Source of the DNA: Alphaproteobacteria bacterium
GTDB lineage: Bacteria > Pseudomonadota > Alphaproteobacteria > GCA-2731375
Assembly: GCA_965225945.1 (NCBI GenBank)
Contig: CBDDBZ010000034.1
Location: 224,001 to 288,000 of the forward strand
Length of the DNA stretch: 64,000 nucleotides
Direction of reading: 5' to 3'
Under the pieces are notes generated by a model. It saw only the letters and a program-made list of their open reading frames with translations, was not told the origin of the DNA and searched no databases. Of the stretch, positions 38,110 through 63,612 are shown piece after piece. How positions within the stretch are numbered: position 1 is the stretch's first letter; the number at the start of each line of letters is the position of its first letter. The position numbers and the translations under genes were made by a program.

Positions 38110-40521
38110 ATGAGAACGATGATACGCAAGATCGCCATGGGTATCGCATCCCTGATCGTCGTGCTGTCGGCGATCGGGGTGGGCGCGTTCATTTACTTGC
38201 GTGGCTCGTTGTCGCGGACCAGCGGATCGATCACGCTGACCGGGTTGAGCAAACCCGTCGAGATCTTTCGCGACGCCAACGGGGTGCCACACGTCTTCGC
38301 CGAGAGCGCCGAGGACGCCTATTTCGCGCTCGGCTTCGTGCATGCCCAGGACCGGCTCTGGCTAATGGAGTTCACGCGCCGTCTCGGTGCGGGCAGGCTG
38401 GCCGAGGTCCTGGGGGAGCCCACGCTCAAATTCGACCGCTTCTTCCGCACTCTGGGCCTCTACCGGCTCGCCGAAGCGAACTACGAGCAGCTGTCGCCTG
38501 AAGTGCGGGAGGCGTACGACGCCTATGCGGCGGGCGTGAATGCTTGGCTGCGTGCCCGCAGCGGTGCGCTTCCCTTGGAATTTCTGCTCCTTGGCGTTGA
38601 GCCGGAACCATGGCGGCCAGCGGACTCTCTGGTTTGGGGCCGCCTCATGGCGATTCGGTTGGGGAAAAACTGGCGCACGGAAGCGCTTCGGGCCCAGATA
38701 CTCAATGTGCTGGTCGCTAAGGGCCTCCCGCGCGAACGGCTAGACCAGTTATGGCCCGGTTCGAACGGCGCCAACCCATCGACGATCGAAAGCGCCCGTC
38801 GTGCCGCGCGGCTGTCCGAGAGCCTCCTTGCATCGATACCCACCGACGAGGTGTCCGGTGGCGCATCCAACGCTTGGGTACTTCATGGCACCCGGACAAG
38901 TACAGGTAAGCCGCTCTTGGCAAACGATCCTCACCTCGCATTCGGTGTGCCAATTCTGTGGTATCTGGTTCGCATCGAGACGCCCGATCTGAGTGTCACT
39001 GGTGTTACGCTGCCGGGTGCGCCCCTCACGATATTGGGCCACAACAACCGCATCGCCTGGGGCATCACCAATGGCTACGGAGACAACGAGGACCTATTCG
39101 TCGAGACGATCGACCCGGGAAACGCCGATGCCTATTTGTCGTCGACCGGCCCACGCGACTTCGATATCCGGGAGGAGACGATCCCGGTCGAGGATGGCGA
39201 GCCAGTCCGCTTGAGGGTCCGCGAAACATACCACGGCCCGGTCATATCGGGCGTATCGGAGGATGCGGCGAAAATAGCCAAGAAAGGCACTGTGATCGCC
39301 TTGGCTTCAGCGGCGTTACGTGAGGACGATTCTACGGTCGAGGCGTTATACGCTATTAACCGTGCCGGAGACTGGACTGATTTTCTTGCGGCTGCCGCTC
39401 GGTTTCACACGCCTCAACAGAATCTCATGTTCGCGTCGAGGGATGGACACATCGGCTTCATCGTCGCGGGCCGCCTTCCGTTGCGCAGATCCGGCGATGG
39501 CCGTTTTCCCGTTCCCGGCAAGGACGGCACCCACGACTGATAAGGATTCATTCCGCCGCACGCATTGCCGCGAGTTCTCAATCCGCCTTCGGGCCATTTC
39601 GTCAATGCCAACAATCGAAGCGTGCCCGAAGACTATCCTTACCTCGTTACCAAGGACTGGCCGCCGCCCCATCGCGCCAATCGCATCCTCGAGTTGCTGG
39701 ACGCCATGAAGGCGCCGGGAGTCGACGACATGGCAGCGGTGCAGGACGACGTTCGATCGCCGGCGGCCGAGCGCTTGCTGCCGCTGATGTTGAGCTTCGA
39801 GCCGCGCGAGGCGCGCTCTCGGCAAGCCATCAAGCTGCTCTCCGATTGGGACTTTTCGATGCTGCGTGATCGAGCGGAGCCGCTCATCTACACGGCATGG
39901 TTGCGGCAATTTATCGTGGCGCTGATCGATGACGAGATTGGCTTCGGACTGGTCGATGGTTATCTAAAGTTGCAAGAATATCCCGGGCTCGGCTTGGTCG
40001 AGGCCACGCTGACCGACAATCCACAGTGGTGCGACGATATTGCGTCTTCTGAACGGGAAACCTGCGGCAACCTGCTCGAGATTGCTCTTCAACGGGCCCT
40101 TGATGAAATTACCGCCGAGCTCGGCGGGGACATCGATGATTGGCGCTGGGGTGATTTACATCGCGCGACCTTCACACATCGCGTACTCACGCGTGTTCCC
40201 ATCGTTCGATGGTTCGCCGATCTCTCGATCGAGTCGGATGGCGGTGATCATACGGTCAACCGCGGCAATACGCCGCGCGCCCGGCCGGGCAACTCGTTCA
40301 AGCAAATGGCTGGCTCCAGCTTTCGGGCAATCTACGACTTGGCGAGCTTCGACGACAGCCGCTTCATCATACCCATGGGCCAGTCCGGAAACCTCCTTTC
40401 GCCGCATTATTCGGACCTCTTAGAGCGCTGGCGTGACGGCAAATACATTCGAATTGCCGGCTCGCGTGAGGAGTTGATCGCGGCATCGCGAGATCGTTTG
40501 GTGCTCGAGGTTTCTAGATAG
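38110..40521 (+). pseudogene. penicillin acylase (S45) family with two consecutive in-frame stops
   Basis: AQDRL, SNAW nucleophile, ANDPHL, NANN, GQSG motifs; TGA TAA at 39538-39543, same frame resumes. Confidence 0.9.
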
Positions 40522-40597: not shown

Positions 40598-40783
40598 ATG
40601 AGCCAAGAGAACGCGACACGGTACTTCTCATCCACCTACGGGGAGGCGCGAAAAAGGTTTCGCGATGCTGCACAATCCACAAATGCCGAATTGGTGTCCT
40701 TTGAAAATCCGAAGGAGGGAGTTGCCGGGGAACGACTCTTCTCGGAAGTCGCGCTGTTGGGCCCCATGACCGGAGTCACCTGA
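40598..40783 (+). pseudogene. N-terminal stub of a DUF2817 / M14 metallopeptidase-like protein
   Basis: FSSTYGEARKRF.DAA...GERL..EVALLGP, cut at the start of repeat copy 1. Confidence 0.6.
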
Positions 40784-40793
40784 AAGCCGAAAC

Positions 40794-41539
40794 CTTGCCT
40801 ATCCGGTTATCACCCACACCCACTATATGTAGTGTGCACCCATTTTCCTGAGTAAAGCTCGGTGCAGGTCGAAGCGGAGATATCTCCGGCGATGCCGAGC
40901 AGGGACTCGGACGGCATTGTAGCGGCTTTTAGGCGACACTTTAGCGTGGTGGAAATCCTAATCATTGAGTCGGATTTGGCAAAACGCCACGTTGCATAAA
41001 GGACCGTCACTTCATTGAAATTTATCTGAAATCGGAGGTGAACGACACCGATGGAATATTCCAGGAAATCAGAGCTTCATTGAATTGTAGGATTCGAGTG
41101 CCGGATTATTCACAAATAGCTCTGTGAACTGGTTTTCAAGTTCGCTCAATACGTCATATGAAGTAAACGGATTGAGGATCACGTTCTTGCGTGTCGCTTC
41201 GTCTTCGCTGCGACTCAAAACGCGCAGGAGACTAACAGGCGCGGACGGGTTCTTCGCAACGATTCGTGCCAGCGCGTCGCTTTCTTCGACTAGTGCCGTC
41301 AATCGCTCAGACGATGTCGTTTCATCAGCAGCTTCCCGTCTGGCCGTGGGTTTCTTCGTTTTTCCCTTGGTCGCCACCGTTCCGTCCCCCGATGTTAAGT
41401 ACGTGACGCTCCGGTTCGGTTTTCAGAACAATCAAGAATTAGCCGGATCGCCTCCTCAATGCGCCTGCGCCGGCCCTTGCCTGCAGTCCAAGGAGACACA
41501 CTACATATAGTGGGTGTGGGTGATAACCGGATAGGCAAG
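40794..41539. mobile_element. non-autonomous IS1595-family (ISSod11-like) cassette/MITE, 746 bp
   Basis: 43-bp perfect terminal IR CTTGCCTATCCGGTTATCACCCACACCCACTATATGTAGTGTG; 8-bp TSD GCCGAAAC. Confidence 0.85.
41069..41377 (-). CDS. small leucine-rich-variant/HEAT-like repeat protein (passenger)
   Basis: VAKNPSAPVSLL..L, VILNP.T...VL..L, FVNNPAL repeats. Confidence 0.6.
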   Translation of the reverse strand: MATKGKTKKPTARREAADETTSSERLTALVEESDALARIVAKNPSAPVSLLRVLSRSEDEATRKNVILNPFTSYDVLSELENQFTELFVNNPALESYNSMKL

Positions 41540-41837
41540 GCCGAAACTCCGTCACTCGTGGCGGGAGAATATGCCGTCTGGCGCGCTTGTGCATAACCCG
41601 TTGTTTTGAAGGGGGTTTTGTGACGTCACGTAGACCACCGTTTCTGTGAACCTACCGAGGCGGGAACATCTTGCCTCGGTCCGGTGAGGGGAGATGTCCG
41701 GAGCTGGTGAAAGCAGACGATCCATGGCCGCCAGCGTCGAGTCGTGGTATAGCTATAAGCGGAAATTTGGAACTGGTCCATCGTCTGTAGATTGCGAGAT
41801 GGTTTGTCGTTAAGGGTTCTCGGCAGGGAGGAGTTCA

Positions 41838-42647
41838 ATGTCAGACGCCAACCTATGGCATCTTAGTGGTAACGCCGCAGAGCAATACGAGAAGATTTCA
41901 GCTCGATATATTTTGGGACCATGGGCTCCCAGTCTTATCGAGGCGGCAGAAATTCAGCGCGATGAGAGAGTATTGGACATCGGTTGCGGGACAGGTGTGG
42001 TTACGCGTGCTGCGGCGAAAAAACTTGGTCCGGCAGGTCACGTTACGGGTCTAGATTTGAACAAAGGAATGCTAGAAGTCGCTAGATCATTGGGAGTTTC
42101 CGGCAGTGACAATATCTCCTGGGTACAGAACAGCGCGATTGAAATCGAGTTTCCCGACGACAGTTTTGATGTTGTCTTGTGCCAACAAGGTTTACAGTTT
42201 TTTCCAGATCAAAGGAAAGCTCTGCGAGAAACGTATCGCGTTCTACGAGGTGGCGGTCGGACGTACTTTAGCGTTTGGCGCGGAGCCAGTCCCTATAACG
42301 ATGCGTTGGGCGGTGCACTCTCGCAGCACATTGATCAGGATACGTCACAGAGATATTTAGCCTCTCGCGAAGTGCCCGATGCCAATGCGCTCCAGTCGAT
42401 GTTTAATGAAACAGGCTTTAGGCAAGTGAGCATCACGCCTATTGAAATGGAGGTGCGTTTGCCCGAGATCGACCAATTCATTCTGGCGCACCTCCGAGGA
42501 ATGCCTGTTTCTGGCGCGGTCGAAGCACTTTCTGAAGGTGCACAATCTGCATTCGTGGAGACAGTCGTTAGAGACCTTTCAAAATTTACGGACGGCTCTG
42601 ATGTGGTTGTGCCTGATAGTATAAATCTTGTGTCGGCAAGAAAGTAA
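41838..42647 (+). CDS. class I SAM-dependent methyltransferase (UbiE-like)
   Basis: VLDIGCGTG, GLDLN.GML, CQQGLQFFPD motifs; GGAGGAG RBS; visibly AT-richer than the backbone. Confidence 0.92.
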   Translation: MSDANLWHLSGNAAEQYEKISARYILGPWAPSLIEAAEIQRDERVLDIGCGTGVVTRAAAKKLGPAGHVTGLDLNKGMLEVARSLGVSGSDNISWVQNSAIEIEFPDDSFDVVLCQQGLQFFPDQRKALRETYRVLRGGGRTYFSVWRGASPYNDALGGALSQHIDQDTSQRYLASREVPDANALQSMFNETGFRQVSITPIEMEVRLPEIDQFILAHLRGMPVSGAVEALSEGAQSAFVETVVRDLSKFTDGSDVVVPDSINLVSARK

Positions 42648-42712
42648 AGGCTGGCTCGGAGCCAAGCTAACTTCCGGGGTAGGTCAAACCACGACGAACC
42701 ATGTGCAGACCA

Positions 42713-42949
42713 CCCATGACCGGAATCAGCCGGAAAGCCGAAACTCGGTCACTCTCTGATGGAGTATACCTCGCTCGGAACACCTGTGGATAACCAGTTG
42801 TTTCGAATGGGTTTTTGTCACGTCGCGTAGACCACCGTTTGTGAGCACCTACCGGAGCGGGAATATCTTCAGACACAGCAACGAGGGGGAATGTCCGTAG
42901 CTGGTGAAAGCAGACGAACCGAGCCCCGGGCGCCGAGTCGTGGTATAGC
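42713..42949 (+). repeat. ~237-bp diverged non-coding repeat, copy 2
   Basis: Colinear with copy 1; TGTGGATAA at 42785-42793; ends in TGGTATAGC. Confidence 0.88.
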
Positions 42950-43035
42950 CAACTCCAGACTCCGACAGGCCGGGTGTCGCGTCCGTCCAGGGACACTGTA
43001 GGATCATTCGGATCAACTGGACCAGGGAGGCGTTG

Positions 43036-43437
43036 ATGACGCAGCTTGAAGATTTCATCCTCGATTACGCGCGATCCTACGAGACCTACGATCCAGACAA
43101 GGTCGGCGCTTTTATCAACACTCCGTGCACCTTCTGCCTGGGCGACAACTTGGTGCTCCTCGATACGGAGGACCGGATCAAGGAGTTCATGCAAGCGGGA
43201 CTTGCAGCCTACAAAGCTAATGGTTGCGTATACTTCAAAGCACGTTTGCACGGCGAACGTCGGATCGGCTCCAGCTTTGCGATGATCGACGTCGAATGGT
43301 CACCGGAGAATGCCGACGGTGAGCGCACCATGCACTTCTCGACGTCCTACAATCTCGTGAAGCACGCCGGTTCCTGGAAGGTCGTGTTGATCACCCGACA
43401 CGACCCTCAGATCCTAACAGGCCCCGTCCCTCGCTAA
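43036..43437 (+). CDS. NTF2/SnoaL-like protein
   Basis: 133 aa, Y...Y...D N-terminus, YNLVKHAGSWKV C-terminus; GGGAGG RBS. Confidence 0.72.
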   Translation: MTQLEDFILDYARSYETYDPDKVGAFINTPCTFCLGDNLVLLDTEDRIKEFMQAGLAAYKANGCVYFKARLHGERRIGSSFAMIDVEWSPENADGERTMHFSTSYNLVKHAGSWKVVLITRHDPQILTGPVPR

Positions 43438-43447
43438 CATTGATGCT

Positions 43448-43826
43448 TCAGGGACCGAACTGAACCGGCGTGGCGCCGGCACTGGACGCATGGTAGCGTG
43501 GCAGCTCGTCAGCGACATCGAACCATCTCAGCTTCTCACTGTAGAACACATGACGGTCCGGCAAGACATTCTCCGGTCGGTCGAGCGTGCCAACATGAAA
43601 CTCGACGATGATCTTTCCGCCCCACTCGCCTTCGTAGGTCAGAGAAGTGCCACAGTCAGCGCAGAACGCTCGTCCGACGCCAGGCGATGATTCGTAGATC
43701 TTCCTTTCGCCCTCGGCGAAGCGGACCTGGTCTTTCTCGAACATTATGAACAGCACCGCCGGAGCACCGGAGGTACGTCTGCAGGATTCGCAGTGGCAAT
43801 AGGGCACATAAACCGGATCGCCCGTC
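43448..43826 (-). pseudogene. GFA (CENP-V) family protein lacking its N-terminus
   Basis: CHCESCRR, RAFCADCGT, GTLD, HVF motifs; no start or first CxC motif. Confidence 0.8.
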
Positions 43827-44215
43827 GCCGAATATGTCCTCGTCCTCGATGACGATATCGCCGAGGTTGACGCCGACGCGGTACTGGATGCGACGATCGT
43901 CCGGCACCTCGGCTTCGCGTTCCGCCATCGCCCGCTGGAGCGCCACGCCACATTCGACGGCGTCGACGACGCTGGCGAACTCCACCAGCATGCCGTCGCC
44001 CATGAGCTTGACGATGCGGCCATGGTGTTTCGCGATCATGGGGTCGATCAGCTCGGCCCGATGCGCCTTCTGCCGCGCGATGGTGCCGCGCTCGTCGGCC
44101 TCCATGAGCCGGGAATACCCGACCATGTCGGCGGCAAAGATCGCGGCAAGTCTGCGTTGTTCGCCCTGGTCTGCGTTGTTCGCCCTGGTCTGCGTTGTTC
44201 GCCCTGGTCGGCCAT
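43821..44215 (-). pseudogene. class III adenylate/guanylate cyclase, truncated and frameshifted
   Basis: RRLAAIFAADMVGYSRLM, KLMGDG, RVGVNLGD, DIFGDG, then an abrupt junction. Confidence 0.88.
44150..44209. repeat. 19-bp tandem repeat x3
   Basis: (GTCTGCGTTGTTCGCCCTG)x3 plus GTC. Confidence 0.93.
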
Positions 44216-44466
44216 GTTCCCCATCCGACGCCAAGCGGGCCGAGCCTAGCAGAGACAGCAAGTCCAATCCATCAAGGCGCCGAGACATGCCGAGCCATGG
44301 AAAGGGGACGCGGAGACCTATCGACGACGGTCGTGAACCGGGCGAGGGCCGACCTGGCCGTTCCGGCGCCGACCATCATGCTCCGCCGGCCCAGAGAGCG
44401 CCGGCCTTTGCGCCCCGGCCGGGCTGGGGTACATCTGTCGCCGGGTCGCCACCACGGGAGCAGCGC

Positions 44467-61830: not shown

Positions 61831-61976
61831 GAGCCAATGACCGGTTGGGATCAAGAACGAAACCGCTTTCAGCGGTAGTTCGTGGTGCCGGGCGGTGAGG
61901 TCGGTGGCGTAACGGATGGGTCGATCCTGTGTTGAGGTTTGGAGTTCCGAAGCTCACGCAACACGGGAGCAGACCC

Positions 61977-62882
61977 ATGACCGATAGTGACAAGACCATC
62001 AGCCCGCTGCGCCAGCGCATGATCGACGACATGGTGCTTCGCGGCTTCAGTGCCAACACGCAGCGCGGCTACATCAGTGCGGTGGCCGGCTTTTCCGACT
62101 TTCTCGCACGCTCTCCGGATCGGGCGGAGGCGGAGGATCTCAGGCGCTATCAAGTGCATATGCGCAAAGCAGGCGCATCGGCGACGACGATGAACGCGGC
62201 GGTCTCGGCATTGCGGTTCTTCTTCGGCGTCACGCTCGGCCGAGGCGACGCCGAGATCGGCATGACGACGGTGGCAATGCCGCGCAAGCTGCCGGTGATC
62301 CTGAGCGTCGAGGAAATGGCGCGGCTTCTCGATGCCGCCCCCGGTCCCAAATACAAGGCGGCCTTTTCGCTGGCCTATGGCGCCGGCCTGCGCGCTTCGG
62401 AGGTGGTCCATCTCAAGGTCCCGGACATCGACAGCAACCGCAAGACGCTTCGCATCGAGCAAGGTAAGGGCCGCCGAGATCGCTACGCCATGCTCTCGGA
62501 TCGCGCCGTCGAGCAGCTCAGGGTCTGGTGGTTGCTTGGCCGCGCCCGCGGCGTGATGCTGCCCGGCGGTTGGCTGTTTCCAGGCCAGAACCCGGTCAAC
62601 CCGTTGACCACCCGCCAGCTCCGTCGCGCCCTCGATGGCGCCAAGGCGGGGGCGGGGATCGAGAAGCGGATCTCGCTTCACACGCTGCGCCACTGCTTCG
62701 CCACCCATCTCCTCGAACAGGGCGTCGACATCCGCGTGATCCAGGTTCTACTGGGGCACAAGAAGCTGGAGACCACGGCTCACTACACCCAGGTCGCCAG
62801 CACCACCTTGCGGCGCGCCAAGAGCCCACTGGACCTGCTCGAGCCGCCGACGCCCAAGACCAAGCGCAAGCCGCCGAAGTGA
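61977..62882 (+). CDS. tyrosine recombinase/integrase with N-terminal SAM-like domain
   Basis: SPLRQRM, YGAGLR, GKG, HTLRHCFATH, LLGH, TTAHY catalytic set. Confidence 0.95.
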   Translation: MTDSDKTISPLRQRMIDDMVLRGFSANTQRGYISAVAGFSDFLARSPDRAEAEDLRRYQVHMRKAGASATTMNAAVSALRFFFGVTLGRGDAEIGMTTVAMPRKLPVILSVEEMARLLDAAPGPKYKAAFSLAYGAGLRASEVVHLKVPDIDSNRKTLRIEQGKGRRDRYAMLSDRAVEQLRVWWLLGRARGVMLPGGWLFPGQNPVNPLTTRQLRRALDGAKAGAGIEKRISLHTLRHCFATHLLEQGVDIRVIQVLLGHKKLETTAHYTQVASTTLRRAKSPLDLLEPPTPKTKRKPPK

Positions 62883-62895
62883 GCCGGCGGCCTCG

Positions 62896-63612
62896 GTGCC
62901 GCGTCCCGCGCTCGAGGTCCAGGACATCTTCCGCGACCACGGGCCCGGCTTCCGTCGGGCCCGGGCCGGTCGTCTGAGCCTCGGCCAACTGAAGGTCATG
63001 TCGGCGATCGAGTGTTGCCGCACCGCCGCGCTCGGCGGTCATGTCGCGGCCTGCGAGGACTGCGGGCAGAACCACATCGCCTACAATTCCTGTCGCAACC
63101 GCCATTGTCCCAAATGCCAAGGCCAGGTCGCGCGCGAATGGCTGGCGGCGCGAGAGGCCGAACTGCTCTCCGTCCCCTACTACCATCTCGTCTTCACCCT
63201 GCCAGCGGCGATCGCCGACATCGCCTATCAGAACAAGTCGGTGATCTACGATATCCTGTTCAAGGCGAGCGCCGAGACCATGCTCACCATCGCCGCCGAT
63301 CCCAAGCATCTCGGCGCCAAGATCGGCATCACCGCCGTGCTCCACACCTGGGGCTCGGCCATGACCCACCATCCCCACATCCACATGATCGTGCCGGGTG
63401 GCGGAATCTCACCTGACGGTAGCAGTTGGATCTCTTGCCGGCCCGGCTTCTTCCTGCCCGTCCGCGTGCTCTCGCGCCTCTTCCGCCGCCTCTTCATCGA
63501 GAAGCTCCTCGCCGCCCACGAGGCAGGGCGCCTGAAGTTCTTCACCGACCACACCAGCCTCGCCGAGCCGGCGGCCTTCCGTGTCTTCCTCGCACCGATG
63601 CGCAAACAAGAA
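62896..63612 (+). pseudogene. IS91 family transposase, cut by an IS1595 insertion
   Basis: CRT..LGGH, SCRNRHCPKC, HLVFTLP, LHTWG...HPHIH; similarity ends at MRKQE, before the YxxxY motif. Confidence 0.88.

Follow-up and report, generated by a model that had tools for sequence, protein, structure and literature searches.

A genus-restricted family of non-coding intergenic modules in an alphaproteobacterial genome, two copies of which resemble a gene-cassette array

In integron cassette arrays, a diverged, co-oriented repeat lies between single unrelated, mostly small accessory genes. The repeats, the attC sites, are about 60–140 bp long, and integron repeats were first seen as the Vibrio cholerae repeats. 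To our knowledge, complete integrons are rare or absent in the Alphaproteobacteria. Other repeats described from bacterial intergenic DNA include the Correia elements of Neisseria, which are miniature inverted-repeat transposable elements (MITEs), and the REP, BIME, ERIC and RIME families. Rolling-circle (IS91-type) elements are described as making no inverted or direct repeats and as able to overrun their termination site and carry adjacent DNA along (PMC5714925). Here we analyze a 64,000-nucleotide stretch of an alphaproteobacterial genome (contig CBDDBZ010000034.1, assembly GCA_965225945.1), called the window below, in which two copies of a repeated module each precede a different gene. A preliminary description made from the sequence alone had taken the module for the recombination site plus promoter of an integron-like gene-capture system.

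The module is one member of a dispersed family of non-coding elements, about 290 bp long, that lie between genes at unrelated loci and are restricted to one genus. The family is an addition to the known class of bacterial dispersed intergenic repeats. Iterated nhmmer searches found 18 copies or fragments in this genome (G000, 6.27 Mb), as follows: two in the window, five co-oriented within 7.3 kb of contig C31, and the remainder on contigs C12, C19, C21, C29, C33, C35, C36, C37, and C39. BLAST searches located the module at at least 13 places in G002 and at one weak place in G001, both being relatives of the same genus. No module was detected by BLAST in the other 30 genomes of the order, that is, it is present in 3 of 33 genomes, or in 3 of 61 when class-level relatives are included. 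A collection of 72,556 plasmids gave no module match. Pattern scans of public collections carry little weight; a 16-letter pattern, which is too short, returned at least 118 stretches in genome contigs and a 30-letter pattern returned two in metagenome contigs, and nhmmer found a module in none of them. The preliminary description had allowed that only the two window copies might exist, with no variety among the genes behind them. There are instead many copies, and the genes downstream of them are varied.

The family alignment, 21 copies over 284 columns, defines both ends of the module: 5′ TGGGTCAT... and 3′ ...TAGCCA. Column conservation starts at the 5′ sequence and falls off right after ...TAGCCA(A). 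The flanks of 10 copies have nothing in common outside the module, and the spacers between the module end and the start codons of five different genes cannot be aligned. That is, homology stops at the same nucleotide regardless of the gene that follows. Inside these limits, 89 of the 284 columns are at least 90% conserved. They are clustered, so few runs of conserved columns being found in only 34 of 5000 shuffles, and the conservation in blocks described earlier is borne out; the variable stretches between the blocks hold a fixed length. An internal duplication was considered and rejected, as local alignment of the 5′ part of the module with its 3′ part was no better than in shuffled sequences (943 of 2000 for the consensus, 99 of 2000 for copy 2).

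Module identity between copies is 65–81%; truncation is frequent, as is interruption by insertion sequences. The copies of this genome and those of G002 are at non-orthologous places, and the flanks of the G002 modules match this genome on one side only or via shared insertion sequences. A synteny search for an empty site found no counterpart of the 40.6–43.4 kb segment of the window in G001 or G002. As a separate observation, stretches of 0.4–1.4 kb at four G002 loci (L066, L067, L072, and L073) are 99–100% identical to parts of contigs C3, C35, C37, and C38 of this genome, and the genes shared by the two genomes are about 80–83% alike. The near-identical stretches suggest a recent exchange of mobile DNA between the two species.

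The features of the window that bear on the module are as follows.

40598–40783, plus strand: 5′ fragment of a DUF2817 gene, ending where copy 1 starts (Pfam PF10994, profile positions 1–48 of 341)
40763–40792, plus strand: left piece of module copy 1, without the first ~35–48 family columns (repeat search, alignment)
40793–41540, 748 bp: miniature element from an IS1595-family insertion sequence, splitting copy 1 (perfect 44-nt terminal inverted repeats)
41541–41753, plus strand: right piece of module copy 1 (repeat search, genome search, alignment)
41838–42647, plus strand: SAM (S-adenosylmethionine)-dependent methyltransferase, passenger gene 1, 50–52% G+C (Pfam Ubie_methyltran / Methyltransf_11)
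42680–42949, plus strand: module copy 2, full length, with both family ends (repeat search, alignment)
43036–43437, plus strand: NTF2-like protein DUF6841, passenger gene 2 (Pfam PF20795)
43448–44288, minus strand: GFA-domain gene abutting a truncated adenylate/guanylate cyclase gene, at the right edge of the low-G+C stretch (Pfam GFA, partial Guanylate_cyc, G+C profile)

Copy 1, in its two pieces, and copy 2 are diverged direct repeats in colinear order. The repeat search aligned 41537–41753 with 42734–42949 in colinear blocks of 136 nt (77%), 38 nt (89%), and 27 nt (85%), and it paired 40763–40793 with 42713–42744 at 83–93%. The likeness is far above chance, since copy 2, used as a query against the whole genome, finds copy 1 with E = 6.8e-32. 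The two colinear repeats of the preliminary description are thus confirmed at their positions. Its right end for copy 2, 42949, also holds, with the copy alignment placing the left start at about 42680, some 33 nt further left than noted. The genes behind the copies do differ, and each has a strong ribosome-binding site as described: the starts are 85 and 87 nt past the module ends, with AGGAGG-like and GGGAGG-like sites directly upstream. The methyltransferase gene, said to be richer in A+T than the backbone, is so, its 50–52% G+C comparing with 58–75% in the flanks. Within the family, each of the two window copies has its nearest relative elsewhere, and the pair is therefore not a local tandem duplication.

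At the left edge of copy 1, the DUF2817-like gene is indeed cut off where the module starts. The cut had been read as a recombination or insertion junction. It is a deletion junction, because neither the gene nor the module is complete at this point and the remaining part of DUF2817 is nowhere in the genome. The interruption of copy 1 is of another kind. In place of a transposase, the miniature element has a 102-aa open reading frame (ORF) with a Pfam LRV_2 domain (41069–41377, minus strand), and its first 69–127 nt match ISAcr1-type IS1595 elements on plasmids. The genome holds 60 full-length copies of it, 748–757 bp long, of which 46 have 6-bp direct repeats at their ends; the 40 copies scored are 99% identical. 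The site is empty in DNA runs X2 and X4. Contigs of both runs join 40785 straight to 41540, so the insertion is recent, and without it, as in other populations, copy 1 forms a single unbroken module. The miniature element is also very abundant among the mapped DNA and RNA contigs.

Two side observations concern the neighborhood. Upstream, a penicillin amidase gene is in two frames (38110–39540 and 39565–40521) and is probably frame-shifted or broken. Downstream, an exact 19-bp tandem duplication is found at 44150–44187, within the truncated cyclase region.

Nothing that we found shows an integron-like working of the module. A genome-wide search with the integron integrase model TIGR02249 gave 67 matches, the best scoring 101 bits against a cut-off of 265, and these best matches are integrases associated with IS91-family elements. 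Neither the window array nor the one on C31 has a recombinase ORF next to it. The repeat search detected no inverted repeat inside either window module and no attC-like symmetry, end-to-end complementarity being only 8–13 nt; the preliminary description had likewise seen no canonical attC structure. Partial copies are truncated at various columns between 98 and 255, with no common crossover. Runs X2 and X4 have no excision, skip, or circle joints at module ends, although contigs can miss rare forms. Two apparent joints in X4 (41624 to 42891 and 42951 to 42894) were considered as a deletion and rejected, as the intervening letters resemble a copy of the type found at G002 L060, and the contig is assigned to another module copy. 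An integron-like capture system, as proposed for this locus, is thus not upheld.

The position of the module relative to genes was tallied for the 13 copies that are complete at their 3′ end, as follows.

5 of 13: a Pfam-backed gene on the same strand, starting 53–158 nt downstream (methyltransferase, DUF6841, SDR-cyclase fusion, cyclase, metallophosphoesterase)
2 of 13: an ORF on the same strand, without a Pfam match, at 391 or 466 nt
3 of 13: an insertion sequence abutting the 3′ end
1 of 13: a reverse transcriptase (RT)-like fragment abutting the 3′ end
1 of 13: a convergent HxlR gene after the 3′ end
1 of 13: a DDE transposase on the opposite strand after the 3′ end

The modules occur in clusters and share an orientation, neighbors often being separated by just one gene, and these intervening genes are on either strand. 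On C31, the order is a binding-protein gene, a module, a MarR/TrmB-like gene (opposite strand), a module, the SDR-cyclase gene, a module, a 103-aa ORF (opposite strand), and a module. The second module in this order is split by Mutator-family insertion sequences flanked by the 8-bp repeat AACGGAAA.

Some further observations on the surroundings of the copies stand apart. The adenylate/guanylate cyclase family is greatly expanded, such that a 340-nt stretch of the truncated copy in the window (43656–44288) finds dozens of paralogs in each congener. Cyclase genes recur beside modules, the SDR-cyclase fusion on C31 being one. RT-like fragments with FMDD and GFDFLGY motifs are present in intergenic DNA of G002 (L058, 1790–1885) and of this genome (C25:158887–159039, which is L219 3388–3540). 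The G002 fragment, about 100 nt, lies between a full module and a second module 3′ part, and the C25 fragment lies between two genes. A link to group II introns or retrons was considered. The fragments have no Pfam match, no intron RNA match, and no intact RT nearby, and they were treated as debris.

We propose, tentatively and at a little less than an even chance, that the module is a dispersed element of MITE-like type, old and discrete, and that its conserved blocks have come to act in cis as a 5′ control or leader module. The element would once have spread as a unit, in a MITE-like or other non-autonomous manner. It would no longer be active, because identity between independent copies nowhere exceeds about 81%. 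The conserved blocks would have been kept as a cis-acting control or leader segment for the co-oriented gene that starts 53–158 nt past the 3′ end. The array-like look of the locus would then come about as neighboring accessory genes, in an island rich in insertion sequences, each have their own copy, rather than by cassette insertion of the integron type. The terminal inverted repeat of the module is weak: it matches at 13 of 16 positions in the G002 copy at L058 (reached by 46 of 5000 shuffles), and copy 2 has an exact 8-mer (148 of 5000).

The promoter half of the earlier proposal, recombination site plus promoter, fits the position and orientation of the module; the recombination half has no support, integrase, attC symmetry, and excision joints all being missing. 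The only sigma-70-like site within a module points leftward, as listed here with a candidate site of another type.

42763–42790, minus strand: sigma-70-like site (TCCACA, 16 nt, TATACT); two such sites in the region against 1.8 expected
42860–42885, plus strand, with a copy 1 counterpart at 41663–41688: candidate promoter-like pattern of the extracytoplasmic function (ECF) type (GGAAT, 17 nt, CGAG), our own reading, from pattern conservation

The leftward site alone is no evidence, and its TATACT block is kept in 10 of 14 copies. For the candidate ECF-type pattern, GAA[CT] followed by [CT]GA is kept in 12 of 13 copies, the spacer being variable in sequence and constant at 17 nt. In two metatranscriptome runs, only two contigs of low depth reach the region, covering 42408–42730 (X18, depth 3.2) and 42861–42993 (X20, depth 3.4, with unmatched ends), and the rest is uncovered; these data give neither strand nor transcript ends, possibly represent DNA carry-over, and are not used as evidence here.

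Several results weigh against the MITE-like origin and control role that we propose. Neither of the two copies with both ends preserved is flanked by a target-site duplication; some transposon families leave none. No parent insertion sequence with matching ends was found among the 18 nhmmer matches, which bracket no transposase gene except in later insertions of insertion sequences. Six of the 13 copies with intact 3′ ends have no ordinary same-strand gene downstream. Copies with only the 5′ part often precede genes on the opposite strand, an arrangement that a simple promoter model leaves unexplained. The occurrence of one gene between co-oriented modules (in the window, on C31, and at two G002 places) would also be expected of a cassette system. 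A sigma-70 scan gave no plus-strand site in either window copy. Finally, the ECF-like pattern comes from our own reading of the alignment, and its −10-like part is loose.

An alternative that we consider unlikely is that the module is a cassette boundary in a capture system other than an integron, with its 3′ end, a hairpin plus TAGCCA, as the breakage-joining site. The agent may be a tyrosine recombinase acting in trans, or IS91-type rolling-circle insertion or termination at the 3′ end, which would stack gene-plus-module units. This alternative draws on IS91-family elements that are abundant in the genome and in which a recombinase gene of the Phage_integrase family is followed by an IS91-type transposase (Zn_Tnp_IS91). 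They are of two types; one has 4 copies and the other about 20, and copies of the same type are about 99% identical. Examples are as follows.

C35:322403–325048, C26:9355–12000, and C38:245945–248586: IS91-plus-integrase elements, that of C35 being of type A
C38:115389–118000: IS91-plus-integrase element of type B
window, ~61853–63612: IS91-plus-integrase element

The integrase-side (left) junction of these elements always follows G[GC][TC]CA[AT]. On C35, the junction of one element coincides exactly with the module 3′ end, and about seven more are at the 3′ ends of a second non-coding repeat family, which we call Y. In all, about 8 of about 22 distinct left junctions are at a module or Y 3′ end. 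These elements thus have a real insertion hotspot at the nucleotide where homology among modules stops.

The Y repeat is about 70–85 nt long, it also ends in TAGCCA, and its ends pair (GGCTATC with GATAGCC). This genome has 42 Y matches at E up to 0.001 and 57 at E up to 0.1. BLAST locates Y at 26 places here and 8 in G002, and in none of the other 31 genomes of the order. Examples are as follows.

C29:162718–162799, Y repeat
C36:361037–361118, Y repeat
C34:291064–291138, Y repeat

The similarity between Y and the module 3′ part is modest (13 of 2000 shuffles), and a Y profile matches no module copy at E up to 0.1. A tRNA-like nature of Y was considered and rejected, as ARAGORN and Rfam returned nothing in eight loci. 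Small genes of various types follow the Y copies, and two kinds of insertion sequence have a hotspot there. Five Y copies (C34:8746–8833, C33:199161, C19:8689, C37:331402, and C29:109729) are interrupted at the same point, after GATAG, by an element with a putative IS110-family transposase, a product read by eye only.

Besides this hotspot, the clusters argue for capture: co-oriented modules with a single gene between them occur in the window (one interval), on C31 (three intervals), and at L073–L070 of G002, and module homology ends at one precise nucleotide before unrelated genes. Rolling-circle transposases are also reported to overrun the termination site and carry neighboring DNA (PMC5714925). 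Against capture, neither array has a linked recombinase, the integrase search fell short (101 versus 265 bits), truncations of partial copies are scattered, intervening genes are on either strand, and X2 and X4 contain no skip or circle joint at module ends. Module ends are unlike the ends of IS91-like elements, no IS91-like copy is within 18 kb of the window array, and no evidence was found that passenger genes arrived by the IS91-type route. It is tempting to extend the idea to both repeats, such that the shared module and Y 3′ terminus (hairpin plus TAGCCA) would be a dedicated breakage-joining site at which single foreign genes are joined and stacked, a cassette capture without IntI or attC; we think this improbable.

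The module may also be transcribed and act as a structured RNA, either as a long leader with a cis-regulatory role or as the product of a family of small-RNA genes, a possibility to which we assign a low probability. In its favor, a hairpin of three base pairs, columns 166–168 with 173–175, pairs through two-sided changes in two of its three pairs, and it is the only helix with convincing changes of this kind. The 3′ part has a conserved loop of the GNRA type (GAAA/GGAA), and the mean z-score for folding of the 3′ half, −0.57 for the plus strand, is slightly below that for the minus strand (+0.39). Helices that we named ourselves have 76.9% of cells paired versus 72.6% in shuffled alignments and a covariation of 0.058 versus 0.032, with none of 500 shuffles reaching either value; the helices were taken from the same sequences as were tested, which inflates the test. 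On the other side, only two of nine copies have z below −2, and predicted folds differ from copy to copy. The full gappy alignment gave no consensus pairs. RNAalifold with default scoring gave −1.5 to −4.3 kcal/mol and almost no consensus structure for the sub-blocks except columns 72–150, and with ribosum scoring the energies were similar on both strands. The 5′ hairpins are confined to one subfamily, and the downstream genes are too unrelated for a single ligand-sensing leader. Rfam 15 has no match at the gathering score in the window and nothing for nine copies, and no match overlaps a module in seven further loci; weak matches at E up to 10 (mir-598, ClpQY_promoter with 14.7 bits against 42, and sR14) were set aside as chance. 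The Rfam check that the preliminary description had proposed therefore names no family, and convincing two-sided changes are limited to the one short hairpin.

Alternatively, the module was never mobile and is the shared control region of a regulon, with binding sites and a promoter, copied along with genes by duplication or recombination. The conservation in blocks with spacers of fixed length, a 10-bp palindrome GTGAnnTCAC in most copies, and the recurrence of cyclase-family genes beside modules agree with this idea. A 9-mer on the minus strand of copy 2 resembles the DnaA box. For homology to end at the same nucleotide before unrelated genes, however, precise joining is needed, which gene duplication does not supply. 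The non-orthologous places of the copies in the two genomes and the length of 290 bp, long for a shared operator and promoter, also argue against it, and we give the idea little credence.

Least of all can the repeat be a decayed duplicate of protein-coding sequence, which is highly improbable: six of the nine copies with a 5′ end have an ATG at their start, preceded by a purine-rich run, and no indels occur in the first ~12 codons, but stops follow after 16, 17, 37, or more codons, indels of 1–2 nt inside conserved parts shift the frames, changes are not concentrated at third codon positions, and the ORF through one 3′ part has no Pfam match. Frames and stop codons vary among copies, and the module is non-coding. 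The two identities that the preliminary description had held in reserve, a decayed coding duplication and a known Rfam family, are both set aside.

A narrowly distributed repeat family in a genome rich in mobile DNA is unsurprising in kind. Its recognition helps annotation and the understanding of how accessory islands are built up in a symbiont lineage. If it were true that the 3′ end is a joining site, a second route to stacking single-gene cassettes, independent of integrase or linked to IS91, would be present in a sponge-associated alphaproteobacterium. That IS91-plus-integrase elements insert in a targeted way, behind a short motif with which structured repeats end, is a testable side result with a value of its own.

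The MITE-like module can be set beside the known systems as follows. It is like integron cassette arrays in having a diverged, co-oriented repeat between single unrelated genes. It differs from them in having no IntI, attI, or linked recombinase, no R″/L″–L′/R′ symmetry, and no excision joints, in having genes on either strand, and in its length of about 290 bp, well above that of attC. In ISCR/IS91-type capture, the likeness lies in the abundance here of near-identical IS91-family elements that insert at the module 3′ end; however, neither module array has an IS91-like element at its side, and the ends of such elements do not resemble the module. With expression-signal MITEs such as the Correia elements, the module shares the character of a small, non-coding, dispersed intergenic element, with candidate terminal inverted repeats, that plausibly affects a downstream gene. 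It differs in its weak inverted ends and its lack of target duplication, near-identical copies, and a parent insertion sequence, and it is larger and conserved block by block rather than evenly. The REP, BIME, ERIC, and RIME repeats are likewise genus-level, structured, mosaic intergenic families and preferred targets of particular insertion sequences, as are the module and Y. Those families are mostly short palindromic units 3′ of genes, whereas the module is long, non-palindromic, and 5′ of co-oriented genes.

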